A DNA stretch of 63,600 nt, filler included. It is 6 parts of 6 records of this genome, joined end to end, with 100 filler letters (N's around TTAATTAATTAA, not from the genome) between each part and the next. Parts side by side here need not be neighbours in the genome. Positions count along the whole stretch, not along the records: positions 1 to 20,456 come from SRR20825019_531; 5 more parts are not named here. One strand, 5' to 3'. Position 1 is the stretch's first letter, and each line of letters starts with the position of its first letter. Both the position numbers and the translations under genes were made by a program. Below are positions 876 through 38,226 of this stretch, in pieces. The notes beneath the pieces were generated by a model, which was not told the origin of the DNA, ran no database searches, and was given only the letters and a program-made list of their open reading frames with translations.

Positions 876-3327
876 ATGGTTCTCACGAAGAAAGCCAAGG
901 CGGCCGCTAAGGCACCTGCAGCCCCGCCAAAGAAGGGTGCGGCGGCTCCAGAGAAAGGTATTCTGCCCACGTCTCTGTTGTGGATTTACACTAACGGCGT
1001 TGTGATCGACTTCAACAGAAGCTCAGAAAGGCAAAGCTCCTGTAAAGAAGCCCGTTGCCAAGGGAAAGGAAACTCCTGCTGAGAAGTCAGCGTTTGAAAA
1101 GCCTTCTTCTAAGGAAAAGCCTGCCCCCAAGGCGAAGGCTGCTGTGGCTCCTGCTAAGGTCCCAGCGGGCTCCAAGAGAAAGGCTGAGACGCCGGCGGAC
1201 CCCCCCGTAGAGTCTGCTGAGAAAGATGGCGCCGCTGCCAACAGCGCGAAGCGCCGAACCAAGGAACCTGCTCCGAAGGGCTCGCCTACTAAGGCTAAGT
1301 CAGCGGCACCCCGGCCCGAGCCCTCGAAGGCTGTTGCTGGAGTAAAGCGTAAGGCGGAGGGCGTTGAGAGCCCGGCAGAAGGTTCGACGGGCAAGCGCCG
1401 AAACAATGCGGATGAAGGGTCACAGAAGGACGCGGAGAAAAGCAAGGATGGTGATGTCGATTCAGAAAATGAACAAGGAAAGGACAAGGCATCCGCAAAG
1501 CCCAGTGATGATGCCGCGAACTTGTCGGAAGATGATGTTCAGAGAGAGGCAGGATCACCCAGCAAGAAGAATCCCGACACACCCCGTCAGCGGCGCTGGT
1601 GTGCTGTATGCAACGGCAGTCATGATGTGAGCAACTTCACGCGTGATGTGTATATTTGCATCAAAAAGAATTACCCCGATGATCACGAGAAGGTGAAAGA
1701 AGACTACAGAAAGCGTGCCGGCATATTTGCTAAGATGGACATTAAGAAACCACGTGGTGTTACAGCTAAAAAGGGCGAGGGAACGACGGACCTTGCGGTG
1801 AGGCCCGCTTCCACGGATGCCCAAAAGCCGGATGAGCCTGCGGCAGAGGCCGGTGAAGCTGAGAAGCCAGCCGCTCCTGCAAAGAGCGATGCTCCCAAGC
1901 CTGTGAGCGAGCAGCCTCCCCCGGCTGGCCAGAGGAAGTGGTGTGTGCTTTGTGAGGATAGTCACGACGCGGCAAACTTTCACCAAGAGATGATGGCTTG
2001 CATCGAAAAGAAGAATCCTGAAGAGCAGGAGGCCCTCAAGCGCGACTTCATGAAACGGCAGGGCATTTTCCTCCGCATGCGTTATAAGAGGCCAAAGAGC
2101 GGTGTATATGACGATACGTCGAAAGCTATCACCGCTGTGGCGGCGGCTGCAGATGCGGCCAAGGCCGCAGTATCCATGGTTACCGCTGAAGCCACCCCCG
2201 CCAAGGAAGGGACCGAGGGTGGAGAAGCTGCGGATGGAAAGAAAAAGGCGCCTGCTCCCAGGCTCAGGCGCTGGTGTGCTGTTTGTAATGGTAGCCATGA
2301 TGTGAGTAACTTCACTCGCGATATTTATATCTGCATTCGCAAGCATTTTCCCGATACTGTAGACCAGGTCAAGCGGGATTATCGCCAGAGGGCTGGAATT
2401 TTTGCTTCTATGGACATTAAGAAGCCACGTGGGATTACAGCGAAGAAGGGGTATATGGATGAACAGATCTCCGATTCTGAGGCCAACAAGGACCAAGGAT
2501 CCCCCAGCAAAGCTCGTCAGATGAGGTGGTGCCCGGTGTGTAGCGGCAACCATGACGCCGTCAACTTTACCCGGGATGTATATTATTGCATCAAGAAGAA
2601 TCACCCTGACAAGAACGAGGCCATGCGTGCTGATTTTAGGAATAGGATGGGCATCTTTGCCAGGATGGACATCAAGAAAGCCCGTGGATATAATGCTGAT
2701 CCAAAGGTGAATGAAGGTGAAGGTGGTGACGTTCAAATCGATGCCGCCACAAATGGAGATAATGCTGTTGCCGCCGCCGCTGCTGCTGCCGCCGCCGCCG
2801 CCGCTGGACGCGCTGGAGATGCCAGTGATGTTGTTGTAGAGAAGGCCGCGAAGCCCAAGGAACCCAAAGGACAGGACGACAATGCAAAAGCCACGAAGAA
2901 AGGATTCATTGCTGGCCAGAGGCGCTGGTGTGCAGTATGCAATGGTAGCCACGATGTGAGCAACTTCACTCGCGATATCTACATCTGCATCAGGAAGCAT
3001 TATCCAGATGATGTGGACAAGGTCAAGAGCGACTACAGAAACCGCTTGGGTATTTTCGCCAAGATGGACATTAAGAAACCACGTGGAGTGTCGGTGAAGA
3101 AGGTGCTTGATGGTACAGGGCCACCTCCTGAACCATTACCGGTAAACACCACATCTGTTAATGCTGCTGCCGCCACGAGTGCTGCTGCTGCCGCCACGAG
3201 TGCTGCCACTGCCGATCCTGCCGCGAATGCTGCTGCCGCCGCCGCCATCGCCGTTGCTGCAGTGAAGGACATGAAGGAAACGGAGAAGGAAATTGACCCT
3301 CCTGCCCAGGAGCAAACTCAGGCATAG
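876..3327 (+). CDS. ~796-aa Lys/Ala/Pro-rich protein with five ~55-aa C-x2-C-x3-H-x11-C repeats (putative Zn-finger nuclear protein); 2 exons, intron 958-1018
   Basis: ATG 876 (MVLTKKAKAAAK). A GT..CTAAC..CAG intron of 61 nt joins exon 1 in frame to ORF 1144-3327. Repeats RRWCAVCNGSHDVSNFTRDxYICI...GIFAxMDIKKPRG at ~1591, 1933, 2266, 2521, 2920. Confidence 0.85.
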
Positions 3328-9093: not shown

Positions 9094-12000
9094 ATGCAAG
9101 TTGACCACACCATATTAGTACAGCACGTGAAGGACACATAGCAGGACCGGGACCGCCTTCCCCACTTTCCGCCATGCACCAGAGAATCGCATATCGGTGC
9201 ACAGTGTCACCAAGCGAGGCTCTTGTCCTTGATCTTTCTGATATTGGTGTACCCGTGTCGGAGATTGAGACCGCCCTTCCGGACTTTTCATCCTTGCATG
9301 GCCTCATTCTGTCACAGAACCACCTCTTCTCAACACCGCAGTTTCCTGAAGGCAGCAGGTCTGGTTTCATGGAGCAGCTACCATTCTCGTTTCCTGACTT
9401 CTGGCAATAGGATCCGCAACATGAACTTATCCCACAACAGCATTAGTGAACTAACCTCTCTTTCAAGTTTTCCTATCATCGGGACTCTGAATCTGGGCTG
9501 GAATGACCTGAGCCTTGATTCCCTCGCGGTACCTAGTGATGGTCGCAGTGTTTCACGAGCTAGTTGCTAACTGAGGTGTAGGCATTGCGGCAAACTGTGG
9601 TATTTGACTTGATCCTCAACGACAATGTGAAGCTTGCTCATGTTTGTCCGTATCTGACTTGTTTTCTTCTCCCGGTTCTCGTATTGACATACCTTTTAGC
9701 CCGCCTCGAGGTAATCCGGACATTGCCGTTGCTGTGGACACTAAATGGCCAGTTCATCACCGCTAAGGAAAGGGAGCACGCATTCAGGGTGGCCCACATG
9801 ACTGGAGAGGTGGACAACAATCACACCCAGACCCAGCTTATGAATGGCACCATTCTGACAATATCAGACACCATGGGAGATCACCAGCGCCTACAGGTAC
9901 CAAGGAATAGCCGTGTTGAAGCCAGACTTAATAACTCCCCTCCACCAGGCACTGGCATTGCACTACGATGACACGGTTGCTGCCGTCGGGCTGTTTAACG
10001 ACATGCCGTCGATCAAGCCTTTCTTTACTCCTCTCACTGACCTGAATGACGTAGACACCACAGCAGCACACCCAGCTATACTTATTGATGTTAGTGTGTT
10101 CGAATGATATTCACGCATGCGACTGACAGGTGTGCAGTTGATGGCGAATCTGAGACCCAATAGAAGGTGGGATATGGCAATTCTATTTTCTTCGATTCTC
10201 GAGTTTCCTATACCCTACGTTTTACAAAAGGAGGCAATGCGTCTTCTGGTCAAAAATTCTCTCACAGTAAGTGTGGTTGGTTGCAACACATGGTGGCCTG
10301 GTACATGCTTACGAATATTTTCTGCAGTCGGACGAGATACAGATGGTGGTGGAAATGCCTGAATATGCCAAATTGGCCCTGACAGTACACCTTGCTACGG
10401 CGGTGATAGAAGATCATGCCAAAGAAAAGCTCAAAGATGTGGGCGGGATGCTGTGGGACACGACGGGAAAATTATGGAAGGAGGTCCTCCTCTCGTTTCA
10501 GGCCAATACCGCATACAGGTCAACCATCGCATCATGCCTCCTTTCCCTGTTAACCCGATGTCCCTCCTTTTCGCTTCACATTGATCATCTGAAGTAGGTA
10601 GACTGTGTAATTGCATTTGGACTTTGGCTTACGGTGTGCCCAGGCCCGTGACAGCGTCGGCTGGCGTTAACCCGTCTGATATGATACGGGAAACCTCTCG
10701 AATGCAAAAGTCACGTACACCATTGCCTAACCCTCCACCGTCACCACATGGGATGGCAGGGAGGCAGAGCAGAGAGTCTAGGCCCTCGCCAACACCGCCA
10801 CAGAAGCACATATCTACGAAGCCTGCCCCACACCCACTAGATAGACGGGGTTACAAGCCGCCTGACCGCTCCCCGGTGTTCCAGTTCGACTTCAACACCT
10901 ATGAGCAGGAGCGATCGGAGGCCATGCCTGGTGAAGAGGTGATGATCAAACCAGGGGTGTTTACCGTCATTTTGGACAACATGGGCCAGGGTATCGTGCG
11001 ATTAGGGCCATACCCCGGGTGTGGCGCTGAGAAAAATCTTTTCGTTTTCATGAGAGAGCTACGATGGAGTGAGAAGGGATATTGGGTTAAGATCATGCCA
11101 GGGGCGATGACAGTGGTGAGCCGCACATCTCCCGTGGTGCAACAGACTCCCCATGAGCTGCACATATATGCAGATGTGTCCAAAATGGACGGCGGGTTCG
11201 TCGTTGCTTCACCTCTGAACATCAGGGACGAAAATCTGAAGCAATCACATGCGTCCTTTAGTGACCTTCGCAATGTGCCATATTACCTTACCACTGCAGG
11301 TGAGCGCCCCTTCACGGTCCAGCCTCGTCCCATGGGGGCCGTCAGGTCGAGGGTGGATACTGTGCTCAAGCATCGGATTATGGAAGAGTTGCGCATGGCT
11401 GACCAGCTCCTCAACTCTCACGCGAATGACACGACGAGGTCCCCGTCTCCGCCCAGGGTCAAAACTGCACCTGAACATCGGCAGACGGAAGAGGATGGCA
11501 CCTTTTTGACTGGGCTTGATATTGCTGAAGGAGATGGTGGGGAGAGCCAGCAGGATGTTCCTTCAAACGCGACTGAGTTTGGAGGTCCGGAGTCTACAAA
11601 TTTCACAGGAGAAAAGGAAAACTTTCCTTCCCCTTCCCCGAAACCCGTTGACCAGGAGTTCAGTATAGTGCAGTATGAAGAGAAGTTAGTCCGCCCGAGC
11701 CTACCGCCCCGCAAAGCAGTGCTTTCTCGCTGGTACGATGTGCCCACCGGCAGCAAATTCTCATTTATTGTTCCACAGCCGCAGCAATTCCCGTTCCGAA
11801 AGCAAAGGACCCGGCCGCTGACACGAGCCACATTACCTGGGGGCTGGAAGCAGATGCCATTCCTGGCGGCGCCTATCGACGACGACAACAAGCCGATGGA
11901 CGTCCACCCTGTGCCCAGTGGCCTGACTACTGCACGGAGCAAGAGTTCTAATTTTGGCAGCACGGTTCGTGGCAGCAATCAACCACTTTCAGGCACACCC

Positions 12001-12150
12001 AACACTTCGGCATCGCGAGGAATCAATCCTTCTCGCGGTTTGACTTCGTCCTTCTCGGTGAGGCGAAGCAGTCTCGCGACCAGAGGAGATGGCGGGATAC
12101 GACGGCCCCAGACATCCCATTCTGGTATACATCTTGGCAGCCACATGTAA
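9094..12150 (+). CDS. Leucine-rich-repeat protein (SDS22/U2A'-type LRR + LRRcap) with long low-complexity C-terminus, multi-exon; exon boundaries approximate
   Basis: LRR segments LVLDLSDIGV, LHGLILSQNHL, IRNMNLSHNSISEL, IGTLNLGWNDL and LRRcap RLEVIRTLPLLWTLNGQFITAKERE spread over short exons; last exon is ORF 10624-12150. A single-gene interpretation is not proven. Confidence 0.6.
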
Positions 12151-12213
12151 TCAAGATGTGGACACACCTACTTGTATACAACAGTGACACTGTTTGGCAT
12201 GCTGATCCAATCT

Positions 12214-14052
12214 TTATTGCTGACGAGGTGACTGATCCTCCACCTTAGAAGGCATGAAATATCCATGCTCGTCGCACAGATTCGTCAGCCGCGTGCCCGC
12301 CTCACCAAGAATAAACACAGCGGCCATGCACCGCACCGACCGAGCTCCCAAACCCTTGAAGAAAATCGGCATTCCGCCCTCTGCGTATAAGTTCTTTGCC
12401 GTCGCCAGCATACTACGATGTTTGATGGGCTGACTAACACCCCGGTCCGCCTGCATCCGAGTCTTGATGGTGTCCGCAGGTTGAGTCAAAGTTGCAGCAA
12501 TCTGACCAGCAAGCAGAGATGCCACGGCACTCGCCGCGACTTCGTGCCCGCTGAAGTAGCGTGAGTCGTCCATCAACACCTTTTTCATAACCGGTGCCAA
12601 CCCAAAGAAGCACGTAGTCCACCCAGTCTCGCGGATGAGCGTCGGGTTTATGCCTCGCATCAAGCCCACGAGCCCCCTGTTCTTAAGAATGCCCATGCTC
12701 TCGCCAAGAATGGTACCTCCACTCCGCTGCTGTGAAATCATCACAAGCTCACACGGCGCCACAACCCCGGCAGAAACAGCTCCGGCCGCCGCGGCGAGGC
12801 CCACCTGGACGGCTGGTCCAATCGATTTGTCCGACTCGTGCTCTAGTACCATGCTGGAATACAGCTGCCCGAAAAGCCCATTGGCAGCGTACTGCAGAGC
12901 TGATATGGGCCCGATGGACCCTGCATTGATCCACACTCCACGATACATCACGCGAGGATCCAGGGAGATGGGCTGCTTATATTGCAGCGTGTTCTTGATG
13001 TAAACAGTCGGCTGGGTGATGAAAGTTTCTATCACGCCCGCAGTGCCTCCGACCACAAACATCCTCATGAATGTCTCCTCTTCCTCGTCGTCCTCATCCT
13101 TTGACACACCATAACCCAACATATCGTTCATAAAGTGGGAATTGATCTGCATGCGGTGCAGCCAATGGCGCGCCCGGGCGTCGGGTTGAGTCTGGTTAAA
13201 CAGAGCAAACAAGACGTCCTCGGTTCCCACCACCTTGTGTCCCCTCTTTTCTGCCTCCTGGACGGCATCCAGCAGGGCCAGCTGCACATTCTTGCTGTAT
13301 TCGGCGTTTCCATAAAACACCTCCGGCGAGACACCCCGCCTCTCCAAGAACTTTATCGCCTTGGTTTTGTGCTTCTGATCAGCATCGAACATCGCCTTCA
13401 ACAAGTCCTCCGTCCCTATCAACTTCCTGTTGTTTTGCCTTGCCTCCCTCTGCGCATTTTGCAGCAGACGCATGGCGTTGAACGTGTACGTGTTCGATCC
13501 CTCCAGGCGGTCCAGGGTGACGCCCCTTTCCTGCAGCAGGTTAATAGCCCTACTCCTGGTCTTGTTTGCTGATGCGCTATGAAACATGGCCCACAACAGA
13601 TCTTCGCTCCCCACAACTTCGTGGCCGTTTAAGTGCGCCCTCTCGTTAGCACTCCGCAGAGCGAGCTGTACATTATCGCTGTACTTGAACGGCATGAACA
13701 CTTGTTCCTTTGTTAGTCCCCTCCTCTCCAAAAACTTAAGCGCGGTCGAGGTATCTGTTGGCGCGTGGAAAATCGCCCATAAGATATCTTCAGTTGCAAC
13801 GACCTTGTGTCCCACCCATCGCGCCCGCTTGTCCGCCGTCTGCATGATAATCTCCGCTTTCTTTCCCATGGGAAGCCGAGGCTCATCGTCGTCGTAGAAG
13901 GTCCCCTCGCTGTCACCACCGTCATCCTCCATCGCAGTGCCGACATCTTCCATGGCCGCGCCAGCAACCATGCTGACGGTGCTAGTCAGCTTACGCATAA
14001 GGCTGCTCTGGACAGCCTCCCCATCGCTCCCCACCTCGTCTATGGGCAACAT
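12214..14052 (-). CDS. Fusion: four Clp N-terminal (Clp-R) repeats + C-terminal mitochondrial carrier (SLC25) domain, 612 aa, intronless
   Basis: Four repeats of type A..EA...GH.VVGTEDLL.A.F.....A..L..RGV, then carrier repeats QPTVYIKNTLQ, APCELVMISQQ and QPADTIKTRMQ in one uninterrupted ORF. Confidence 0.88.
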   Translation of the reverse strand: MLPIDEVGSDGEAVQSSLMRKLTSTVSMVAGAAMEDVGTAMEDDGGDSEGTFYDDDEPRLPMGKKAEIIMQTADKRARWVGHKVVATEDILWAIFHAPTDTSTALKFLERRGLTKEQVFMPFKYSDNVQLALRSANERAHLNGHEVVGSEDLLWAMFHSASANKTRSRAINLLQERGVTLDRLEGSNTYTFNAMRLLQNAQREARQNNRKLIGTEDLLKAMFDADQKHKTKAIKFLERRGVSPEVFYGNAEYSKNVQLALLDAVQEAEKRGHKVVGTEDVLFALFNQTQPDARARHWLHRMQINSHFMNDMLGYGVSKDEDDEEEETFMRMFVVGGTAGVIETFITQPTVYIKNTLQYKQPISLDPRVMYRGVWINAGSIGPISALQYAANGLFGQLYSSMVLEHESDKSIGPAVQVGLAAAAGAVSAGVVAPCELVMISQQRSGGTILGESMGILKNRGLVGLMRGINPTLIRETGWTTCFFGLAPVMKKVLMDDSRYFSGHEVAASAVASLLAGQIAATLTQPADTIKTRMQADRGVSQPIKHRSMLATAKNLYAEGGMPIFFKGLGARSVRCMAAVFILGEAGTRLTNLCDEHGYFMPSKVEDQSPRQQ

Positions 14053-19103: not shown

Positions 19104-20126
19104 TTATTTTGGTTCATGTTTTCTTTGCAGAGCAGCTATGACGGTTTTGCAATACTTTTGGTTGACAGCGTGGCGAGAAGGTTTGAACTTAATTCTTCCA
19201 CAACCCGTCATCCACGGATGAGACATTACTTCATCAATGTCTGGTCGGCGAGAGGGGTCAATGCTTAACATCCGCGAGAGCAAATCTTTGAATTCGTCGC
19301 TGCACTTGTTGTTTGTGTGATGATCAATGACTTGCCAGTATAGTTTCACCTCATTGTTGTACCACAATCGACAATAAGGGTCATCCAAATCTGTGTTGGA
19401 GTTCCAGCACGGAAAGCCAACAACGATCTCAAATATGGCCACACCCAGACTGAAGATGTCTGCCTTCTCGGGGTCGTATCCATCATCACTACGGATGCCA
19501 GGTGGCCCAAGGACCTCAAGGGGTGCGCGAGTCCTTGTCCCGCACTCCATGCGGCTGTGAATAATTATGCCATTTGAATCTCGTGACTTGCACCAAAATG
19601 CGAAGTCTGCAAGTTTGATGCATATATCATTGAGCCGTAGTCCCTGCTTAATGTGCTCGGGAGAGGCTTGATTCTTGAAACTAACAAGAAAGTTCTCCAC
19701 CTTGATGTCTCGATGAGCTACATGTGCGTCGTGGCAGGCCTCGACGGCACGGGCCATCTGCTTGCATATTGTGTGGGCGGCGTTGATGTCCAAATTTCCA
19801 GGCATGTCTGTGAATCGCCACAAGTCCATTTCACAGAGTTCGGACACAAGATATACGTTGGTCTCGTCTGCAAGAGCTTCGAGCATGGATAGCACGTTGG
19901 GATGGTTCACTTTTGACATTCCGTACATTTCCCACTTCATTGTGTTCATGTTCTTGGGAATATTTTTGTAGTCGAGGTACTTGATCGCGACATGTGTATG
20001 TTCCCCGCTGGCCTTGTTGTTCCTGTGAGGCACCTTCAACGGTAGTCTGGATGGGCAAGAACACTTGATGACTGCACCATTGGGAATATTGGCTATAACT
20101 TCTTCAATGTCAAACTCAAATTCCAT
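19104..20126 (-). CDS. Ser/Thr protein kinase (CAMK-like), atypical motifs, intronless
   Basis: VAIK, HPNVL, HRDIKVENFL, KLADFAF, CGT..APLE, DIFSLGV, ML..DP.RR. First ATG is at 20126 (MEFEF). Confidence 0.85.
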   Translation of the reverse strand: MEFEFDIEEVIANIPNGAVIKCSCPSRLPLKVPHRNNKASGEHTHVAIKYLDYKNIPKNMNTMKWEMYGMSKVNHPNVLSMLEALADETNVYLVSELCEMDLWRFTDMPGNLDINAAHTICKQMARAVEACHDAHVAHRDIKVENFLVSFKNQASPEHIKQGLRLNDICIKLADFAFWCKSRDSNGIIIHSRMECGTRTRAPLEVLGPPGIRSDDGYDPEKADIFSLGVAIFEIVVGFPCWNSNTDLDDPYCRLWYNNEVKLYWQVIDHHTNNKCSDEFKDLLSRMLSIDPSRRPDIDEVMSHPWMTGCGRIKFKPSRHAVNQKYCKTVIAALQRKHEPK

Positions 20127-20433
20127 GGGAGAGCAGCCCACGAGTAGGGCCTTGACGGACAAGTTCAAAATGGAATTTTGGAGAGTGCTCAGGAGTGGAC
20201 GGGGTAGACTCGGTACTTGCCGATATGTCGAGCTGTTGTGATTCGAAACTTGAGGAACCGGAGAGGGAAGACATCCTTCGATTTATACTGACAAAGAGTT
20301 TAATCACATGATGACATAGATGTAGGCCGCCTGCCCAGAGGGCTATGAGTTCACTTTTCGGTCAGAGGCCAAGGCAACAGCGGTGAGCAAGCATACTCGT
20401 GTTAGTGGCGGACGGTGTGCTCGGCCGAAAGAA

Positions 20434-20456
20434 GGGGGGGGGGGGGGGGGGGGGGG
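20434..20456. other. Poly-G contig end, probable sequencing artefact
   Basis: Homopolymer G run directly abutting the N spacer. Confidence 0.7.
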
Positions 20457-28812: not shown

Positions 28813-28912
28813 NNNNNNNNNNNNNNNNNNNNNNNNNNNNNNNNNNNNNNNNNNNNTTAATTAATTAANNNNNNNNNNNNNNNNNNNNNNNNNNNNNNNN
28901 NNNNNNNNNNNN

Positions 28913-30348
28913 GCTACAGCATCTGCTCCATTTTGGAGACCGTTACTCCCAAAAACAAGAGAAACGTTTGGCACCCCATCATTTCCTAATACAAAATATC
29001 CATTAGCATCGGTTGTATAACCATCCAAACTATAGGTTTGATAACTCAAATTATTAGAACCATTATAAAACACAAGTGTAAGTCCATCCAAAGAAGAATT
29101 TCCAATACCTCCATCATACAATTCAACAAATTCAGCAATATCTGTTCCTTCAGTATCTGCATCAATTTCATTAATTAGCACCACTGCATCTGTTCCGCTT
29201 CCATCTCCTTCATAGATTTTATTAACAGTATTTGGCGTATTCAAAGCATCTCCTTCTTCAGCAGTAACATCAGGAAAATCGGGTAATCCTGCTCCATTAA
29301 AATTATTTCGAACCCAGTTGGATGTATAATTGGTAACATTTCCATTAGGAATTCTAGAAGCGCCTCCTACGGTAAAAGTAGCCCCATCAAAAGTAGGTGC
29401 TAGAACAACATCAGCATAGGTTAAATCTCCAGCATCTCCATCTAAAACTGCAATACCATCTACTATTTTTTCCCAAGGAGTATTATCTAAAGTTCCATCA
29501 GCATTCATATCTACTACCTCCCCTACGCTTCCAGTAAAGTTTTCAACCAAAAGCAAACTTACCGTACCATTTTCAAACTCATTAGCTAAAAAAGCTGTAG
29601 TATAGAACCCATCGGCATTCGTACTTCCTAATTGGTAGACACCGTCTATGGTACCTGCGGAAGAAACATCTCCTTCAATTTCTAGAATCCAATAAGATGA
29701 TAAATCGACATCTGACTTACCAAAAACCTCTACAAATTCGTTTGTATCACCCCCAGTATGGTTAAAAACAAACTCATTAATTACAGGAGTAATTTCTATT
29801 GATCCGAAAGTCTGATTGGCATTTATACCTCCAAAAGTTGAAGGGTTTTGTACTTCCCAAGAAAATTCTGAATAGTCTGTTCCTTGCCCTACAAGTGCTA
29901 ATGAAACACCTTCTGGAGTTGTACTACTTTCCGCTACACCAATATCCTCACTTAGTATTCCATCGGCAGGACCTCCTACTGCAGTAAAAGTTCCCTCATA
30001 ACTTAAAAACTGTACTACAGAATTACTCCCATCAATTAGGGCAATTCCATCAGGACTTCCATTTTGTAAACCATTTGACGGCAATGCAATATGAGCCACC
30101 CCATATCCATTACTTAAATTGGCAACTACAGTATTGATATTTAAGGTGTTATACGCTGTGCCATTTGAGCCGTTATACAAAACTAAACTATAGAGAGAAA
30201 GGTCGGTTCCAGCTGGCGCAGCAATTTCGATGCTTTCGCCTACATCTGTTCCTGCATTATCGTAATGAATTTCATTAATAAATACACTTTGTGAAAAGCT
30301 ATATATTGATAAAAATGCAGTAAATAAAGAAAGTAAAAATCTTTTCAT
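28913..30348 (-). CDS. Secreted protein with three lamin-tail-domain-like repeats (ExeM/NucH-type nuclease N-terminus likely), 3'-truncated
   Basis: Signal peptide; repeats VFINEIHYDN.GTD..E.IE, VINEFVFNH.G.D..EFVE, LINEIDAD..GTD..EFVE; LQNG.D. The catalytic domain is not in the window. Confidence 0.7.
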
Positions 30349-30493
30349 ATATTATTTTTAATAGGTTGATTACTACAAAAATAACATTATTTAATTTTTA
30401 GATGCTGAATATCAATATTATGTAATTGTTAGCTAAAACTAAACAAATAGGAAATATTCGAAAAAAGTGATTTTCTTACCCTTTTTCTTACCC

Positions 30494-31597
30494 TTAAAAA
30501 TCGAACTTTAACTGTACAGAAACTTCCTTTTGAATTGGCGTCTCTTTTTTCTTTTTTTCTGTGTTTAAATTAGCCAACGAAATTCCTAGAAGACGGACGG
30601 AGTTTTCTAATTTCTCTTGATATAATAATTCTTTTGCTGTTTCTAGAATAAGGCTTTTATCAGCAATAAAATAATCAAGGGTTTTGCTTCGTGTTTGCAG
30701 CTTGAAGTCGCTATACTTAATTTTTAAAGTAATTGTTTTCCCAGCTATCTTACTCTTTTTTAATCGGCGTTCCAATTCGTTTGCAATACTTTCTAAGCGT
30801 TCTAACATAAACACTTCGCTACTTAGATTCTCACTAAAAGTACGTTCTGCACCAACCGATTTCGGAATTCTATTTGGTTTGACTTCACTTAAATGAATTC
30901 CACGAACGACATTATAATAAAAAGCACCGCTTTTTCCGAAATTCTCGGTTAAAAACTCAACTGATTTTTCTTTTAAATCCTTTCCTGTAAAAATTCCAAG
31001 GGAATACATTTTCTGGGTGGTTACTTTTCCTACTCCATAAAATTTACGAATCTCTAAATCCTCCAAGAAAGGAATTACCTCATCGGGTTCTACTGTTTTT
31101 TGTCCGTTTGGTTTATTATAGTCGCTCGCAATTTTAGCTACAAATTTATTAATTGATATTCCTGCTGAAGCTGTTAATCCCACCTCCTCAAAAATACGAT
31201 CTCGAATTTCTTTAGCTATATTACTAGCCGATGGATTCCCTTTTTTGTTTTCGGTAACGTCTAAATAAGCTTCGTCCAAAGAAAGAGGTTCAACTAAATC
31301 GGTATACTCTAAAAAAATAGTTCTAATTTTAGTTGAAATCTCTTTATAGCGGTCAAAACGGGGACGAACAAAAATAAGTTCTGGACAATTTTTCTTGGCT
31401 TGATAGCCGCTCATTGCACTTCGAACTCCAAATTTACGTGCCTCATAACTAGCTGCCGATACCACTCCACGCTTTTCATTACCTCCTACTGCCAATGGTT
31501 TTCCTTTTAATTCTGGATTATCCATTTGCTCAACAGATGCATAAAATGCATCCATATCCACATGGATTATCTTTCGTAAAAGGACTGAATTTTGCAT
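30494..31597 (-). CDS. dinB: DNA polymerase IV
   Basis: IIHVDMDAFYASVE, ASYEARKFG, SLDEAYLD, KIASD..KPNG. Confidence 0.96.
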   Translation of the reverse strand: MQNSVLLRKIIHVDMDAFYASVEQMDNPELKGKPLAVGGNEKRGVVSAASYEARKFGVRSAMSGYQAKKNCPELIFVRPRFDRYKEISTKIRTIFLEYTDLVEPLSLDEAYLDVTENKKGNPSASNIAKEIRDRIFEEVGLTASAGISINKFVAKIASDYNKPNGQKTVEPDEVIPFLEDLEIRKFYGVGKVTTQKMYSLGIFTGKDLKEKSVEFLTENFGKSGAFYYNVVRGIHLSEVKPNRIPKSVGAERTFSENLSSEVFMLERLESIANELERRLKKSKIAGKTITLKIKYSDFKLQTRSKTLDYFIADKSLILETAKELLYQEKLENSVRLLGISLANLNTEKKKKETPIQKEVSVQLKFDF

Positions 31598-31600
31598 ATG

Positions 31601-31608
31601 CAAATTTA
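31601..31608 (-). promoter_or_regulatory. Bacteroidetes -7 promoter element (TAnnTTTG) immediately upstream of dinB
   Basis: Minus strand TAAATTTG ends 3 nt before the ATG. Confidence 0.5.
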
Positions 31609-31699
31609 AACTAAACAACTTTAGAGCGAACCAGGAATTATTAAAATTAAAAGAATTTCAATCAATATCATTTTAAGAAATTGCATAAAACGATAACAT

Positions 31700-31845
31700 C
31701 CCCCGCTAGCGCGAACATCATGCTCGTGCCGATTATGAGTAAGAAGCAAAAACAACCAAACAAACACCCTTATAATCTCCTCAAGGGGATATTGAATACG
31801 GAGCCCGAATCAATTCCCCCTTGGAAGGGGGCTATGGGATGTAAA
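31700..31845. repeat. REP-like palindromic remnants in dinB/oxidoreductase intergenic region
   Basis: GCTAGCGCGAACATCATGCTCGTGCC, ATCTCCTCAAGGGGAT and CCCCCTTGGAAGGGGG GC-rich hairpins in an AT-rich background. Confidence 0.45.
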
Positions 31846-32121
31846 AATGCACACTTATAACTAAATTTCTCTAAGCAAAGGGGAGATGTAAGACTACTCC
31901 ACTTATTCGCAATTGCACCGCTTTGTATATGTATAAGGATAGTAATAAAATAGAAACTGTTACAAAGCATGAACATTCTGTATAAAAAAGAATTCCCACT
32001 CGAATGGATTTGTACGACAACAGGAGTATATTAAAATCTTACTTAATAAGCAAAAAAATCTTCGCTCTTAAATTCCCAAAAAATAATACCTAACTTTATA
32101 AAACTGAAAAGTTATTAGATT

Positions 32122-32799
32122 ATGGCTACAGAAAAAATAGCAATTATACTTGGTGCAACTGGGCTTACTGGCTCTCTATTATTAAAAAAACTCATAAAAG
32201 ACGATCGTTATAAAACCATAAAACTATTTTCTAGGAGCGCTACAACTATTTCCGACCCAAAAATTAAGGAACACATTGTAGATCTATTAAATCTTGAGCT
32301 TTCCAATACAGATTTTACTGCAGATGAGGTGTATTGCTGTATTGGAACTACCAAATCAAAAACTCCCAACAAAAGCACTTATAAAGCTATTGATTACGGA
32401 ATTCCGATGGCAGCCGCCACGTTAAGCAAAGCTAATAACATTAACACTTTTATAGTTATTTCTGCCTTAGGCGCTAACCCAAAAAGTAAATTATTTTACA
32501 ACCGTATAAAAGGTAAAATGGAAAAAGATGTTTTAAAAATAAACATTCTCAACACTTATATTTTACAGCCCTCTTTAATTAGTGGAAAACGAGAAGAAAA
32601 AAGAGCGGGAGAATGGTTTTTTAAACAACTAATGAAAGCTTTAAACTACATTATGGTGGGACCATTAAAAAAATATCAATCGGTTGCTCCAGAAAAAATA
32701 GCTACAACTATGGTATATTTGGCGAATAATAACTTCCCTTCTGGGAGAATTAAAAATGATAAAATCAAACAAATTGCAGAAACAAATGATAGAGATTGA
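32122..32799 (+). CDS. NAD(P)H-binding SDR-like protein (YraR/TIP30 family)
   Basis: ILGATGLTG, CCIGTT, SALGA, FYNR.KG..E, QPSLI.G.R. Confidence 0.88.
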   Translation: MATEKIAIILGATGLTGSLLLKKLIKDDRYKTIKLFSRSATTISDPKIKEHIVDLLNLELSNTDFTADEVYCCIGTTKSKTPNKSTYKAIDYGIPMAAATLSKANNINTFIVISALGANPKSKLFYNRIKGKMEKDVLKINILNTYILQPSLISGKREEKRAGEWFFKQLMKALNYIMVGPLKKYQSVAPEKIATTMVYLANNNFPSGRIKNDKIKQIAETNDRD

Positions 32800-33253
32800 G
32801 CGTAAGTTTTTGGTAGTTTCTGATGATTTCAAAAAAGCAGCTTCAAAAAGAGAACATATTGTTCAAGGTTTTTTAAATAAAGATCCAGAACGAACCGTGA
32901 GAATTCGAATTAAAGGAGAAAAGGGATTTATTACTGTAAAAGGAATTTCAAACGCATCTGGAACTAGTAGATTTGAATGGGAAAAAGAAATATCTGTTTC
33001 GGAAGCGAAATCGTTATTAAACATTTGTGAAAAAGGTGTTATCGACAAATACCGATATGAAATATTAATAGGTAAACACACTTTTGAAGTTGATGAATTC
33101 TTAGGAGATAATAAAGGTTTGATTGTTGCTGAAGTTGAATTAGCATCAGAAAAAGAAGGTTTTGAAAAACCTTATTGGCTTGGAAAAGAGGTTACTGGAA
33201 ATGTTGCTTATTACAACTCACAACTCAGTGAAAATCCGTTTAAAAATTGGTAG
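32786..33253 (+). CDS. CYTH domain protein
   Basis: EIERKFL, RIRI, K.RY, EVDEF, AEVEL, WLG.EVT...YYN. Confidence 0.92.
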   Translation: MIEIERKFLVVSDDFKKAASKREHIVQGFLNKDPERTVRIRIKGEKGFITVKGISNASGTSRFEWEKEISVSEAKSLLNICEKGVIDKYRYEILIGKHTFEVDEFLGDNKGLIVAEVELASEKEGFEKPYWLGKEVTGNVAYYNSQLSENPFKNW

Positions 33254-33299
33254 AATTAAAATAGAAATCCATCCTAGGTGGGCTGCAAAAGGCTTTCCG

Positions 33300-34583
33300 C
33301 TACGATGATTTTTTAAAGTAACGTTTATAGACAAACTCAATTATAAAACAGATTATTACAATCCCCAATGAAATACTTATTCCTAGGGGATTGGAGCTAT
33401 ATTGCTGAATTATAAGTGCTAGTGAAGCAATAACACATAATAGAAACCCAATAAAAGGGATTGCTTTTTTGGCTTTTACTTTGGTAGCTTTTTTATAGCC
33501 CACAAAATTTACGGTAGCAAAAATAAGTAGAAAACCAACACTGCCAGCGGTAGAAATACTTTCCAATTCTAGTAAATTAACTAGAACAAGTGTTAAGATA
33601 GCTGTAATTAACAATCCAATAGGTTGATTCCAAAAAGTACTTGTTAATTCGTGTGGCAATTCATCGTCCTCTGCAATTTCATAACTCACCCTACTTCCTC
33701 CATAAAGGGTAGCATTAATAGCAGAAAAAGTAGAAATAAGTGCCGCAACAGTAATAATTGTAAACCCTACCTGCCCTAACATCGGTTTTGCCGCTTCGGC
33801 AAGCACATAATCTTCTGCTTCTGCAATCTTAGAAAAGGGTAAAGAACCAACAGTTACTATTGCTATAACAATGTATAAGAAAATAACAAAAAGTACAGCA
33901 TAAAAATAGGCTTTCGGTACGTTTTTCTCTGGATTTTTTAGATCTGAAACTGAATTTGCTATCAACTCAAAACCTTCATAGGCAACAAAAATAACCATCC
34001 CGCCAGTAAGTAATTGAATAGGAGCTTCCCAATTTGAAAATGCTAATTGCTCTAAATTAGTACTATCTTTCAATCCATATAAACCTATTATTACAAAACC
34101 TATAAGAATAATTAATTTAATAACTACAGCATAATCCTCTATTTTACCTACAATTTTTATGCTGTAATAATTAATAGCAGTTGCAAAAATTACAATGGCA
34201 CTAGAATAAATATGAGTATCTATAGCATTATTAGTTGTAATCTCCCATAAATTTGGAGCGTAGGAGCCAAATGCAGAAGCGTACAAAGCCAACATAATAA
34301 TATAACTTATCCAAAGCAGGTTGTTAATCCCTCCGCTAAAAATAGACTTTCCAAAACCTACGTTTATAAACTTAACAGTTCCACCACGATCTGGATATGC
34401 CAATGATAATTTTACGTAACTATAAGAGGTTACCAATGCAATAATACCAGCTATTAAAAAAGCAATAGGGGTTCCGCCTTTTGCTAAAGAAACTGCCAAC
34501 CCAAGTACGGCGAAAATTCCTCCACCTACCATCCCGCCAATTCCTATAGAAACTGCTTCTTTTAACCCTATTTTATTGCCCAT
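33300..34583 (-). CDS. APC-superfamily amino acid permease
   Basis: GGMVGGGIF, AYEGFELIAN, multi-TM profile. Confidence 0.9.
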   Translation of the reverse strand: MGNKIGLKEAVSIGIGGMVGGGIFAVLGLAVSLAKGGTPIAFLIAGIIALVTSYSYVKLSLAYPDRGGTVKFINVGFGKSIFSGGINNLLWISYIIMLALYASAFGSYAPNLWEITTNNAIDTHIYSSAIVIFATAINYYSIKIVGKIEDYAVVIKLIILIGFVIIGLYGLKDSTNLEQLAFSNWEAPIQLLTGGMVIFVAYEGFELIANSVSDLKNPEKNVPKAYFYAVLFVIFLYIVIAIVTVGSLPFSKIAEAEDYVLAEAAKPMLGQVGFTIITVAALISTFSAINATLYGGSRVSYEIAEDDELPHELTSTFWNQPIGLLITAILTLVLVNLLELESISTAGSVGFLLIFATVNFVGYKKATKVKAKKAIPFIGFLLCVIASLALIIQQYSSNPLGISISLGIVIICFIIEFVYKRYFKKSS

Positions 34584-34595
34584 AAATACAGTTCC

Positions 34596-35462
34596 TTATG
34601 ATAAAACTTTTTTAATATCTCGCCACGTAATCAGTTTTACCTCTTTTTCTTTTAACAACTTCTGAGTGCTTTCATCAGTAAAAAAATCAAAATCTACTTG
34701 TCGCCATTCAGCACCAAAATTTGGATGATCGATAGCAACTCCTTGCATTTCGTCGTTATTAAAAGCAGGGTGAATTAAAATAATATTTATTCCATTTTGC
34801 AAACTTTCAATAGCATGTTTATAATAAGCATCAAGACCAGCACCATCAAACCATTTCCACTCACCTGTAAAAACACTTTCAATAGTAAAATCTGTATCCA
34901 AAATATATTTTTCAGTTTCCATATTAAAATCGCCCAACAACTGTTTGCTCAGAAAAACAGCTAGGTTATATTCTTTCCCTAACTCCCTGTATACATTTAT
35001 AATTTCCTTGGTTAAGCCTAAACAAAACATGTGAGAATCCAAGTGTGTTGGTTTTACCCCCCAAGCAATAGCCAATTCTATTTGAGCTTTTAATTCTTTT
35101 TTTACTTCAGAAGGATTTACATTTTGTTTTACCATGGCACGCTTCGGATAAAAATGCCCATTTTTATCCACTAAACTAGGTACTTCTGCTGCTGAAAGCA
35201 CAGGACCAAACTTATAATTCTTCCATTCGCAAGTCAATGTTAAATGAATTCCATAATCAAACTGCGGATTTTCTTTGGCATAAACTGCCATTTCATATGC
35301 CCATGAGCAAGGCATCATAATACTTGTAGAATTAACAATTCCTTTCTCTAATGCTTTTTTAGTTGCTTCGTTTTCTGCAAAACACAAACCAGCATCATCC
35401 GCATGAATTATTAAAAGTTTATCGGTTGGTAAGTAGCCTAATTTTTCAACTATCTCTTTCAT
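34596..35462 (-). CDS. YdjC/ChbG-like carbohydrate deacetylase
   Basis: LIIHADDAG, G.HLTL..EW, THLDSHM, IHP. Confidence 0.88.
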   Translation of the reverse strand: MKEIVEKLGYLPTDKLLIIHADDAGLCFAENEATKKALEKGIVNSTSIMMPCSWAYEMAVYAKENPQFDYGIHLTLTCEWKNYKFGPVLSAAEVPSLVDKNGHFYPKRAMVKQNVNPSEVKKELKAQIELAIAWGVKPTHLDSHMFCLGLTKEIINVYRELGKEYNLAVFLSKQLLGDFNMETEKYILDTDFTIESVFTGEWKWFDGAGLDAYYKHAIESLQNGINIILIHPAFNNDEMQGVAIDHPNFGAEWRQVDFDFFTDESTQKLLKEKEVKLITWRDIKKVLS

Positions 35463-35468
35463 CAGAAA

Positions 35469-36395
35469 TTACCCTAAAAAATTATCCATTTCTTTATAAG
35501 CTTCAATTACTGCAAGCTCTCCTTCTTTACCCACTTTTGAGTTTCCATGTTCCATCCCTAAAACACCCTTAAATCCTTTCTCATGAATATATTTAAAAAT
35601 ATTTTTGTAGTTAATTTCTCCAGTGGTAGGCTCATTCCTTCCTGGGTTATCACCCATTTGGAAATAAGCAATTTCATCCCAAGAAGCTTCTATATTCGGA
35701 ATCAAATTCCCTTCAGTTATTTGCTGATGATACACATCAAAAAGAATCTTACACGAAGGCGAATCAACGGCTTTACAAATTTCATATGCCTGAGCAGATT
35801 TTTTTAAGAATAACCCAGGATGATTCATATAATTTAGTGGCTCTAATACCATTGTTATACCATGAGGCTCTAAAATTGCCGATGCTTGCTTAAGCGATTC
35901 CACAACATTAGCAGTTTGATAGCCATGTTCTAATCTTAAGTCTACATACCCAGGAACTACTGTAACCCATTTGGCATTTACACGCTTAGCAACTGCCACA
36001 GAATCTTGGATATACTTTAAAAATTCTTTGCGCAGGTTTTCGTCTCCATTTGTAAGGTTTGGTTCACTCCAATAAATTTCATGAGCTACAAAAACGCCCA
36101 TGGTTATTCCTTTTTTCTCCATAGTTTTAGCCATGGCTTCTTGCTCGGCAATGGGGCGGGTACGCATATTATTATCTTCAAAGGCTGTAAAGCCTTGATC
36201 TGCCATAAAATTTAATTGGTCGATAACATCCTCTCCAGCATGATTTTTAAACATTCCAATATGTGGAGCATACTTTAAATTAAATTGATGTGGTGATGTT
36301 TGTATAGACTTAGAAAAAGCAAAGGCTCCAGTAGTAAATACTGAAGCCCCAACACTTGTTGCTATTGTATTATGAAGAAATTTTCTTCTGTGCAT
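35469..36395 (-). CDS. Hydroxypyruvate-isomerase-like TIM-barrel protein with Tat-like signal
   Basis: MHRRKFL twin-Arg; LEPLN, LFDVYHQQITEG, DNPGRNEP.TGEINY, GMEH. Confidence 0.85.
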   Translation of the reverse strand: MHRRKFLHNTIATSVGASVFTTGAFAFSKSIQTSPHQFNLKYAPHIGMFKNHAGEDVIDQLNFMADQGFTAFEDNNMRTRPIAEQEAMAKTMEKKGITMGVFVAHEIYWSEPNLTNGDENLRKEFLKYIQDSVAVAKRVNAKWVTVVPGYVDLRLEHGYQTANVVESLKQASAILEPHGITMVLEPLNYMNHPGLFLKKSAQAYEICKAVDSPSCKILFDVYHQQITEGNLIPNIEASWDEIAYFQMGDNPGRNEPTTGEINYKNIFKYIHEKGFKGVLGMEHGNSKVGKEGELAVIEAYKEMDNFLG

Positions 36396-36455
36396 TAGTT
36401 CTGGTTTTTATAATGAAAGTTAAATATACAAAAAACCAAAAACTGCAAATGAATT

Positions 36456-36932
36456 TTATCCTCTTGTTATTTCTAATATTTCAAATTGTAAAGTTCCATT
36501 TGGCACTTTAACCTCTGCTATTTCTCCAACAGACTTCCCTAAAAGACCTTTTCCGATAGGAGAATTTACAGATATTTTTCCTGTTTTTAGATCGGCTTCA
36601 CTTTCTGCTACCAATTTATAGGTCATTTCCATCCCATTGGCATGGTTTTTTATTTTAACATTAGAAAGTGCTAAAACTTTTGATGTATCCAATTGAGATT
36701 CATCAATAACACGGGCATTTGCCAATGTTGCTTCCATTTTAGAAATCCGCATTTCCAATAACCCTTGCGCCTCTTTTGCCGCATCATATTCTGCATTTTC
36801 AGATAAATCTCCTTTATCTCTTGCTTCTGCTATTGCTTGTGATGCCTTTGGGCGTTCAATACTTTTTAGTTGCTCTAATTCTGCTCTTAATTTTTTTATT
36901 CCCTCTTCTGTGTAATAAGATACGTTACTCAT
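36456..36932 (-). CDS. greA: Transcription elongation factor GreA
   Basis: AEARDKGDLSENAEYDAAKE, IS..SPIG..LLGK. Confidence 0.96.
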   Translation of the reverse strand: MSNVSYYTEEGIKKLRAELEQLKSIERPKASQAIAEARDKGDLSENAEYDAAKEAQGLLEMRISKMEATLANARVIDESQLDTSKVLALSNVKIKNHANGMEMTYKLVAESEADLKTGKISVNSPIGKGLLGKSVGEIAEVKVPNGTLQFEILEITRG

Positions 36933-36950
36933 GACTTCATCTTTTATAAA

Positions 36951-36992
36951 TACAAAAAATCCCCTTTTCCAAAGAGGATTTAAACAAATATA
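36951..36992 (-). promoter_or_regulatory. greA promoter (TATATTTG) followed by terminator-like leader hairpin
   Basis: Minus strand: TATATTTG-TTTAA-ATCCTCTTT-GGA-AAAGGGGAT-TTTTTG, ~20 nt before the greA ATG. Confidence 0.6.
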
Positions 36993-37130
36993 CAAAATTT
37001 TAGTCAACGCAAACGACGAAAATTATTGTAGAAAATATCATATACTATCAAATAATATATTGATTCGTTTTACGTTCAATATTTTTCAGATTGAATTTAT
37101 TGTAACTTGCGCACTTTATAACATTTATTA

Positions 37131-37571
37131 ATGAGACATCTTTTTTACATTTTATCAATTCTATTTATTGTTACTGCATGTAGCAGTGACGATTCTTCCT
37201 TTGATAATCCAAATTTAATAGAACCTGGTTTTAGCTATAACATAAACTTAAACCTTCCTCAATACGCTAATTTAGCAACTCCTGGAACGGCAGTCTATGT
37301 AAACAATTCTAATGTTGGAATTAGAGGAATTTTTGTTATTAATCTTTTCGGAAGTTATAGAGCTTGGGAAGCTAGTTGCCCAAATCATCCACCAAACAAT
37401 TGTTCTACAATGACGCTGAGTGGGGTAACTTGTAAATGTAGTTGTGAAGATTATGAATATGAACTAGCTGGAGGAAGCCTTGTTTCTGAATTTTCTGGTG
37501 AAGGTAAAACATACCCACTACAAGAATATAGTGTTTCAGCAGAAGGTAGCAACGTTCGGATATATAATTAA
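37131..37571 (+). CDS. Lipoprotein with Rieske-like Cys motif
   Basis: Lipobox VTAC; ASCPNH..C..M....CKCSCE..EY...G; YPL..Y. Confidence 0.75.
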   Translation: MRHLFYILSILFIVTACSSDDSSFDNPNLIEPGFSYNINLNLPQYANLATPGTAVYVNNSNVGIRGIFVINLFGSYRAWEASCPNHPPNNCSTMTLSGVTCKCSCEDYEYELAGGSLVSEFSGEGKTYPLQEYSVSAEGSNVRIYN

Positions 37572-37576
37572 TTATT

Positions 37577-38095
37577 ATGGCACAAAAAAGACTTCTAGTT
37601 GATATGGATGGGGTGTTAGCCGATACCTATCAGCAGTTTTTCCGGTTAGAATCTAATATTACAGGTAAAAAAATAGAAAGAGAAAATGTAATTGGAGTTT
37701 CTGAAGCAGATGCTTTTCCAAATTATCTCAGCTATATCCATAAGGCTGGTTTCTTTCGGGATGCTCCTGTAATTGAAAACGCTATTGAAGTAATGAAAAA
37801 GCTTAATAACGTATATGATATTTTTATTGTCTCATCGGCAATGGAATTTCCAAACAGCTTGCGCGAAAAATACGATTGGCTACAAGAACATTTCCCTTTT
37901 TTACACTGGAAGCAAATAATTCTTTGCGGATCTAAAATTCCTGTTCAAGGGGATATTTTAATTGACGACCATTTCAAAAACCTCGATTACTTTAAAAAAA
38001 CAACTCTTTTATATACTCAACCCCATAATATGGGTCGCGATAAAGGACATCAACGAGTTAACAACTGGAAAGAAATTGAAAGCATTTTATTGTAA
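37577..38095 (+). CDS. 5'(3')-deoxyribonucleotidase (NT5C-like HAD)
   Basis: VDMDGVLAD, EKYDWL.EHFPF, DILIDD. Confidence 0.9.
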   Translation: MAQKRLLVDMDGVLADTYQQFFRLESNITGKKIERENVIGVSEADAFPNYLSYIHKAGFFRDAPVIENAIEVMKKLNNVYDIFIVSSAMEFPNSLREKYDWLQEHFPFLHWKQIILCGSKIPVQGDILIDDHFKNLDYFKKTTLLYTQPHNMGRDKGHQRVNNWKEIESILL

Positions 38096-38226
38096 CTAAA
38101 GGTTATCTATACTGATTTTGAGAATGGAAATTGCATTCTTTTGCACCTATATAAACTTCTAAAAGCTCGGTTATAGACTACAAATAGTTTTTTGGTTTAG
38201 TATTTGGGGGATTAAAAGCTTTCTCG

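Follow-up and report, generated by a model that had tools for sequence, protein, structure and literature searches.

To our knowledge, nearly every mitochondrial carrier of the SLC25 family consists of the six-helix unit alone, and the Ca2+-binding EF-hands of AGC and APC are the one well-studied case of a regulatory domain at the N-terminus. The available sections of PMC6769469 describe the N-domain of AGC as protruding into the intermembrane space. As for Clp N-domains, those of ClpC are described in the accessible portions of PMC12583610 as protein-docking modules in which E32 and E106 are crucial determinants of two phospho-arginine (pArg) pockets, and free pArg activates ClpC with a half-maximal effect near 0.22 mM. 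A Clp-N-like domain and a DNA-binding domain together make up ClpC2, a pArg-sensitive repressor in which a conserved Thr belongs to the pocket (PMC13345244, in excerpt). Here we describe a gene in which a Clp_N array precedes a complete SLC25 carrier within one open reading frame (ORF) of 612 amino acids (aa). It lies at 12214..14052 on the minus strand of the window, that is, the whole 63,600-nucleotide stretch of DNA analysed, which consists of six contigs end to end; only contig 1 (1-20456) bears on the fusion gene, which is single-copy in the window as judged by tblastn.

The initial annotation, made from the DNA letters, had called a single intronless ORF with an acidic N-terminus, four Clp repeats, an acidic linker and a full carrier with two of its three signature motifs altered. 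The ORF is present, and its parts are laid out as follows.

12214..14052, minus strand: whole ORF, 612 aa plus stop (P0001), by ORF call
13870..14052, minus strand: acidic, poorly conserved N-terminal region, aa 1-61, with the putative start codon
13684..13869, minus strand: Clp_N-type repeat 1, aa 62-123, VATEDIL (family repeat hidden Markov model (HMM), E 7.5e-24)
13489..13683, minus strand: Clp_N-type repeat 2, aa 124-188, VGSEDLL (same model, E 2.2e-25)
13300..13488, minus strand: Clp_N-type repeat 3, aa 189-251, IGTEDLL (same model, E 6e-24)
13117..13299, minus strand: Clp_N-type repeat 4, aa 252-312, VGTEDVL (same model, E 5.2e-25)
13072..13116, minus strand: flexible acidic linker, aa 313-327, GYGVSKDEDDEEEET
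12250..13071, minus strand: SLC25 carrier domain, aa 328-601, three Mito_carr repeats, six long helices
12994..13011, minus strand: signature of helix 1 (H1), PTVYIK, with Val in place of the acid
12739..12756, minus strand: signature of helix 3 (H3), PCELVM, with Met in place of the base
12628..12633, minus strand: R474-E475 on helix 4 (H4), inferred contact point II (amino-acid-type R[DE])
12463..12480, minus strand: signature of helix 5 (H5), PADTIK, aa 525-530, canonical PX[DE]XX[KR]
12331..12333, minus strand: R574 on helix 6 (H6), inferred contact point III

Most of what had been read from the letters holds. Residues 1-60 carry 15 D/E against 3 K/R; they are modelled by AlphaFold2 (AF2) at a predicted local distance difference test score (pLDDT) <50 and are unalignable with the homologues. 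The quoted repeat string ALLDAVQEAEKRGHKVVGTEDVLFALF is found at aa 259, and the two altered signature motifs begin at aa 347 (QPTVYIK) and aa 432 (APCELVM), with PADTIK canonical. The acidic linker stands in part: EDDEEEE is there at aa 320, in a zone (aa 300-323) with pLDDT <50 in the full-length model, but the strong acidity is peculiar to the window protein, where the D/E : K/R ratio is 8:1, with 1:2 to 6:2 in other members of the family. A conserved acidic linker acting as an autoinhibitory pseudo-ligand was considered and rejected, since the strong D/E excess occurs in the window protein alone.

The fusion is a single genuine gene; it belongs to a marine protist to which Telonema is the nearest among named organisms. 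A homologue search of 5.8 billion clustered proteins returned 12 matches (E 2.8e-187 to 1.8e-56), and the precomputed annotation places PF02861 and PF00153 together in 12/12 of them, so the ClpN-SLC25 fusion that had been proposed is real. Several of these homologues are complete ORFs in independent transcriptome assemblies, and the Triparma ones are genome proteins. With the Telonema protein the identity is 56% overall and 64% in the carrier. At the DNA level, 0.84 of the sampled window words occur in the public run X1, whose kind is unrecorded, and one X1 contig of 4424 nt covers 10400-10593 and 10644-13908 with one mismatch. This contig is colinear over the Clp_N/carrier junction (~13060-13130), where the initial annotation had asked for reads spanning the join; the colinearity was found, though X1 is not recorded as RNA. 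It omits a 50-nt GT..AG segment at 10594-10643, as spliced RNA would, and this splice-like joint points to RNA, though it is suggestive only given that X1 is unrecorded as such. The contig spans two convergent genes, and a span of this kind does not prove a single transcript. It ends at 13908, short of the 5' end of the ORF, and the intronless reading is thus borne out for 12214-13908 and has support no further 5'. Two other runs, X2 and X3, contributed just two 151-nt records each. On this evidence a chimeric join is very unlikely.

Next, we examined the N-terminal array. The Pfam Clp_N model scored 36.9 bits in the window protein against a cut-off of 20.7 (E 4.2e-9), in agreement with the initial assignment of the repeats to Clp_N. 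A domain scan had been expected to give Clp_N four times and Mito_carr three times; the three Mito_carr stretches were obtained, but Pfam shows just two Clp_N stretches, the best of them at aa 263-301, in repeat 4. The count of four is upheld by other means. In a self-alignment of the protein, aa 69-163 show 44% identity to aa 196-291 (E 3e-25), an internal duplication; the family repeat HMM finds four repeats in the window protein, each at E <= 7.5e-24, and 2-5 repeats in 22/22 sequences examined; and the AF2 model of the N-region matches the ClpC N-domain. That model (aa 60-320, built from a 25-row alignment; pLDDT 78, predicted template modelling score (pTM) 0.66) consists of two confident modules with a low-confidence loop between them. 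The first stretch modelled with confidence comprises repeats 1 and 2; repeats 3 and 4 make up the second ClpC-like N-domain.

In the VIA structure comparison, for which the stated noise level with helical models is Z about 13-14, the N-region model matched the ClpC N-domain 2y1q at Z 17.5 (root-mean-square deviation 2.4 A over 122/137 residues) and the pArg complex 5hbn at Z 16.4. Of 996 chains compared, 112 reached Z >= 8, and Clp/Hsp100 N-domains fill the best 50 of these 112. Foldseek gave a probability of 1.00 and TMt 0.68-0.75 against 2y1q/5hbn, and the N-region matches include Arabidopsis chloroplast ClpC1, ClpD and ClpT1/2. With phmmer, aa 189-289 align with residues 5-116 of the ClpC N-domain (ClpC/ClpC1, E 5e-5), placing IGTEDLL on the ClpC IGTEHIL and VGTEDVL on VGTEHIL. 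No AAA family was found by Pfam at E <= 1 in the window protein, which is not a Clp ATPase: its repeats are followed by the carrier. A histone fold was also considered and rejected: CBFD_NFYB_HMF scored 22.2 bits with no stretch passing alone, TFIID-18kDa fell under its cut-off, and the fold matches to H2A-H2B (TMt <= 0.28) were set aside as the helix-loop-helix likeness of the Clp_N repeat.

The 58 repeats of the family share the consensus [YLF]-[ST]-x-N-A...L..A...A...G-H...[VI]-G-[TS]-E-D-[LIV]-L-W-A-[LM]-F...S...A..[WF]-L..R-G-[VI]. Within its central motif, G is kept in 54 repeats, T/S in all 58, E in 52 and D in 57. At the repeat start (second repeat position) S/T is present in 50/58, and in proteins with three or four repeats this position of repeat 1 is G, not S/T. 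Judged from these residues, pockets of the pArg type may be retained in the family repeats.

The family is small and conserved, and the number of repeats varies between species. Four are present in the window protein and in Telonema subtile (P0002). Three are found in the pedinellids Pteridomonas danica and Pseudopedinella elastica, in P0003, P0005, P0006 and P0070, in the loricate choanoflagellate Diaphanoeca grandis, and in P0004, whose first repeat is truncated. The proteins of Triparma laevis, T. verrucosa, T. strigata and T. columacea have two, as do P0008, P0010 and P0100; two were detected in P0106, and P0210 has five. A second loricate choanoflagellate, Didymoeca costata, also belongs to the family. 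The distribution of the fused form is therefore patchy (Telonema, pedinellids, Parmales and loricate choanoflagellates), and its members are labelled hypothetical or uncharacterised in public records. The pedinellid-type proteins P0003, P0006, P0016 and P0032 carry an extra conserved, charged and coiled-coil-looking segment of ~60-90 residues before the first Clp_N repeat; the window protein and those of Telonema and Triparma lack this segment.

To place the array among other Clp_N proteins we searched aa 60-320 with phmmer against 1.84 billion representatives and obtained 131 matches at E <= 1e-3, 21 at <= 1e-10 and 5 at <= 1e-30. The strong matches are family members or their fragments, and a carrier HMM confirms that P0070, P0071, P0100 and P0106 have carrier domains. 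Ten of the remaining matches were scanned; all ten are multi-Clp_N proteins with 6-9 repeats, and a carrier domain was found in 0/10. Those with names are bacterial (Actinoplanes/Paractinoplanes, Planctomycetota, 'bacterium') except for one Papaver record. The array may have originated from such bacterial multi-Clp_N arrays or from a ClpC-type N-domain. Two proteins from this search, P0088 and P0090, combine 6-8 Clp_N repeats with a TIR_2 or NUDIX domain and have no AAA+ module; judging by this domain composition, Clp_N looks like a sensor module on effector domains there.

The C-terminal half is a complete SLC25 carrier, as had been claimed. Mito_carr scored 97.7 bits against a cut-off of 22.3 (E 3.4e-28) in three stretches, and AF2 returned a six-helix carrier; in the full-length model (pLDDT 69.3), the carrier residues 330-600 have a pLDDT of about 80-90. 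The closest folds by Foldseek included UCP1 (8hbv; E 3.9e-8, TMt 0.69) and ADP/ATP carriers (TMt 0.54-0.64). When aa 322-612 were searched among shorter proteins, 11 of the 30 matches were 37-49% identical (E <= 1.1e-22), mostly on contigs of ~1 kb, and the remaining ones had <= 30% identity and E >= 2.1e-13. Assignment to a named subfamily was rejected, as the names outside its own clade are mixed (oxoglutarate, PET8, tricarboxylate, carnitine/acylcarnitine), and the ESM Atlas gave generic 'mitochondrial carrier' clusters for the carrier part, with no subfamily lead.

We then built a tree of 37 carrier domains, taken from 48 near-complete ones less 11 near-identical cluster mates. In this tree the fused proteins make up one clade (SH-aLRT 91), within which the window and Telonema proteins group at 98. 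Its sister groups are stand-alone carriers, P0043-46 and P0042; the other carriers lie beyond long branches (2.9 and 1.5 for the tricarboxylate-named fungal ones), and the tree tool warns of long-branch joins. The stand-alone clade gave 513 matches among 1458 candidates, of which 120 were listed; among the matches listed, identity to P0044 is 68-88%. These proteins are unusually short (~267 aa), have no Clp_N and start ~11 residues before helix 1. Their named holders are diatoms (Thalassiosira P0221, Phaeodactylum P0323, Ditylum, Trieres, Cyclostephanos and others) and Triparma retinervis (P0322), and they are annotated just as hypothetical or 'mitochondrial carrier protein', P0323 being a 'predicted protein'. 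Triparma species have both the Clp_N-fused and the stand-alone form.

To compare the functional sites of the two forms we counted residues in 20 fused-clade rows, three of them carrier-only fragments, and 122 stand-alone rows. The acid position of H1 is V in 16/20 fused rows and N in 121/122 stand-alone rows, and its K is kept in 19/20 and 122/122. At the H3 base position M is found in 19/20 and 122/122, and the signature E of H3 is kept in all fused and stand-alone rows. The P and D of the H5 signature are invariant; the K of PxDxxK is present in 16/20 fused rows (A in the other 4/20) and in 122/122 stand-alone ones. The H1 acid and H3 base are taken here to be partners of one bridge, following the pairing scheme of the ADP/ATP carrier; given this pairing, one matrix salt bridge would have been lost on both sides at once. 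The glutamine braces Q357, Q442 and Q534 are kept in 16-20/20 fused rows and 122/122 stand-alone rows, while R474, E475, R571 and R574 are each present in 20/20 and 122/122. In the phmmer alignment to UCP1, R474 falls on the helix-4 Arg and R574 on the helix-6 Arg, and R474-E475 is placed at contact point II through a UCP1/UCP2 equivalence that we assume. Amino-acid carriers typically have an R[DE] pair at this point and, in most cases, Arg at contact point III (PMC6769469, in the sections available).

Two ClpC-like N-domains, a flexible linker and a divergent SLC25 domain lead us to favour, with modest confidence, a working carrier with a Clp_N docking or sensing module on its intermembrane-space side. 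The carrier would act in the mitochondrial inner membrane, transporting an amino-acid-like compound that bears both an amino and a carboxyl group, because R-E occupies contact point II and Arg contact point III, and because the prolines of all three signatures and the glutamine braces are present. Its gating is probably uniport-like or weak, since one matrix bridge is uncharged on both sides and the cytoplasmic network is almost absent. By analogy, the Clp_N array would face the intermembrane space, because the N-termini of SLC25 proteins lie there. The initial annotation had likewise proposed a Clp-N sensor there, possibly linking proteostasis to solute transport; such a sensor would rest on the SLC25 topology, the AGC precedent and the conserved ClpC-type pocket residues. 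As a multivalent module the array could dock or sense a protein segment, or a small phospho-guanidino or acidic ligand, with the putative ligand held in the conserved G-T/S-E-D pockets. Binding to the array might regulate access to the carrier or tether a partner, in the manner of the EF-hand domains of AGC/APC. A multivalent binding platform is more likely than a precise lid because the number of repeats is variable and sometimes odd and the linker is not conserved. A complex prediction of the carrier domain with the Clp_N region scored 0.00, which is no answer and speaks neither for nor against docking.

Several observations weigh against this reading. A Pfam rescan of six homologues found Mito_carr in 6/6, but Clp_N passed the 20.7-bit cut-off in three, stayed under it in one and had no match at E <= 0.01 in two; the Pfam Clp_N model evidently sees the family repeats poorly, having found them in 4/6 homologues at E <= 0.01. 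The full-length AF2 model has a pTM of 0.47, that is, no confident arrangement of the domains relative to each other, and a range of 2-5 repeats, odd numbers included, together with the unconserved linker, argues against one fixed lid geometry. In the carrier, PX[DE]XX[KR] is complete on H5 alone, 1/3 of the matrix motifs. The cytoplasmic [FY][DE]XX[KR] is essentially missing (Y-A-A-N-G on helix 2 (H2), A-P-V-M-K on H4, G-E-A-G-T on H6; positions placed through the UCP1 alignment and our own reading): the H4 acid is replaced by P in 19/20 fused rows, with K kept in 19/20, and H6 has E or Q and no base. Non-transporting SLC25 relatives have such incomplete networks too. Many accepted carriers have incomplete salt-bridge networks as well, and the missing signature motifs therefore lower the standing of the protein as a canonical exchanger, not its membership of SLC25. 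The assignment of contact point II rests on the phmmer alignment to UCP1 and the assumed UCP1/UCP2 equivalence, and the contact-point rule itself has exceptions, ORC2 and UCP2 (PMC6769469, same sections). The G-T-E motif of the repeats may be kept for structural reasons alone. Finally, no RNA run is on record for the stretch, and the evidence for expression consists of the splice-like joint in X1 and the transcriptomes of relatives.

The gaps in the carrier motifs raise the alternative that the SLC25 part is a non-transporting anchor or scaffold, from which the Clp_N array would bring proteins to the surface of the organelle, for instance an adaptor or clients that are unfolded or tagged; we regard this as unlikely. 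MTCH2 and SLC25A46 are outer-membrane SLC25 proteins in such a role. The incompleteness of two of the three matrix motifs and the missing cytoplasmic network motifs would suit an anchor, and a repeat number that varies from 2 to 5 would suit recruitment or binding by avidity. The Tetrahymena complex IV entries 7w5z and 8b6h, in which carriers are structural subunits, are also among the best fold matches, and the docking of proteins by ClpC N-domains (PMC12583610, in part) points the same way. However, between two clades that differ by >60%, R474, E475, R574, all three signature prolines and the glutamine braces show little or no variation, the pattern expected of a working substrate site, and the sister clade does without Clp_N yet remains 68-88% identical among the matches listed.

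A placement in another membrane (plastid envelope, peroxisome or endomembrane), with the array in the cytosol or periplastid space meeting a plastid-type Clp system, appears improbable to us. SLC25 members do occur in plastid envelopes and peroxisomes, several holders of the family are ochrophyte algae (Triparma, Pseudopedinella), and the best N-region matches are of ClpC type, the Arabidopsis chloroplast proteins included. Nevertheless, heterotrophs without known plastids (Telonema, Diaphanoeca, Didymoeca) hold the family, the Triparma proteins begin with ~20 residues ahead of repeat 1 that, by eye, show no hydrophobic stretch resembling a signal peptide, and outside the family the N-region comes nearest to multi-Clp_N proteins that are mostly bacterial rather than to plastid ClpC.

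A more specific form of the sensing model is a long shot, slightly fainter than a placement in another membrane: judged from its motifs, the array could be a eukaryotic pArg reader gating a carrier of amino-acid type, possibly arginine-related, that would sense free pArg or arginine-phosphorylated proteins in the intermembrane space. pArg is the phosphagen of many protists and invertebrates. If true, eukaryotes would gain their first known module for reading pArg, and SLC25 a third principle of regulation beside Ca2+/EF-hands and nucleotide inhibition, with mitochondrial solute flux coupled to the phosphagen or energy state or to a mark of protein damage.

An artefactual ORF, whether chimeric through assembly or created when two neighbouring genes merged on loss of a stop codon, is effectively refuted: the assembly is fragmented and mixed (six contigs, several of them bacterial, with a poly-G end on contig 1) and has no RNA run on record, but the initially feared chimeric join or pair of separate genes is contradicted by the architecture shared by 12/12 homologues from independent transcriptomes, genomes and metagenomes, by the colinear contig of an independent run (1 mismatch in about 3.5 kb across the junction), by marine metagenome reads matching with 0-1 mismatch, and by the conservation of both halves with Telonema.

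Contig 1 looks eukaryotic, because it carries a protein kinase ORF and because the 50-nt GT..AG segment of the neighbouring gene is missing from the public contig. This segment lies upstream of the ATG of the neighbour and looks like a short intron in its 5' untranslated region. The stop codons of the neighbour and of the carrier gene are 63 nt apart, no Pfam family was found in the neighbour ORF, and a poly-G run closes the contig at ~20436-20456. Contigs 3 (28913-39117), 4 (39218-51552) and 5 (51653-58265) are bacterial-looking and differ in GC content (33% vs 50-58%); by its gene content, the assembly mixes the protist with bacteria. The contigs are separated by spacers, over whose joins no feature is to be read. 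The other features of the window are these.

1006-3327, plus strand: 773-aa stop-to-stop frame; sole SBP-domain match sub-threshold (21.2 bits vs a cut-off of 27)
10594-10643, plus strand: 50-nt GT..AG segment missing in the X1 contig
10681-12150, plus strand: convergent neighbour ORF, 489 aa, Pro/Ser-rich, ATG at 10681
19104-20282, minus strand: ORF with a Ser/Thr protein kinase domain (Pfam E 6.6e-42)
28861-30351: lamin-tail-domain protein, reported with the bacterial-looking contigs 3-5
30494-31657: DinB/IMS polymerase, contig 3 (33% GC)
33300-34595: amino-acid permease, contig 3 (33% GC)
44688-46028: homoserine dehydrogenase with ACT domain, contig 4
53968-55518: ABC permease, contig 5
20457-20556, 28813-28912, 39118-39217, 51553-51652 and 58266-58365: spacers, each 44 N + TTAATTAATTAA + 44 N

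We regard the Clp_N array as new among the N-terminal modules of SLC25 proteins. The initial annotation knew of no such fusion, and our full-text literature searches, in sources that do not extend to subscription journals and with the papers listed judged by title and abstract, likewise returned no description of Clp_N joined to a mitochondrial carrier. A Clp_N-bearing carrier family would add the recognition of a protein or phospho-ligand as an input to carrier control and, beyond the known uses of Clp N-domains in AAA+ unfoldases and the bacterial repressor ClpC2, would give them a place in a eukaryotic membrane transporter. Together with its diatom sister clade, the fused family constitutes an uncharacterised carrier lineage in ecologically important marine protists, and whether its patchy distribution reflects gene transfer or repeated loss is a question that can be addressed.

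Among the known systems, AGC1/2 (SLC25A12/13) and APC/SCaMC come closest in layout, with a soluble N-terminal domain of ~260-300 residues followed by a full carrier. The N-domain of AGC regulates access to the substrate site from the intermembrane space (PMC6769469, available sections), and its contact point II is RD, of the same R[DE] type as the R-E of the window protein. In contrast to AGC/APC, the window protein has a Clp_N array and no EF-hand was found in it by Pfam at E <= 1; its carrier is near no named subfamily (<= 30% identity and E >= 2e-13 outside its clade), and the number of repeats in its family varies with species. With the N-domain of ClpC/ClpC1, and also of ClpA, ClpB/Hsp104 and the plant ClpD and ClpT, the array shares, as modelled, the two-repeat eight-helix fold, and its [FY]-[ST]...G-[TS]-E-x-[LIV]-L aligns with the pArg-site residues of ClpC. 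Unlike ClpC, the window protein has no AAA+ module, M-domain or ClpP loop and is joined to a membrane transporter; G-T-E-H in ClpC corresponds to G-T-E-D in the family (D in 57/58 repeats), whose arrays have 2-5 repeats. The mycobacterial ClpC2 is alike in holding a Clp N-type, pArg-responsive domain outside an unfoldase (PMC13345244, in excerpt), and outside the family the N-region has its closest relatives among the bacterial proteins with 6-9 Clp_N repeats (E 1e-12 to 1e-9); both differ from the window protein in that the output domain here is a eukaryotic transporter. The stand-alone carriers of diatoms and Triparma share with it the H3 PxExxM, the missing H1 acid, the H4 R-E and the H6 R..R, but they have no Clp_N region, carry N rather than V on H1 (PxNxxK) and are much more highly conserved.

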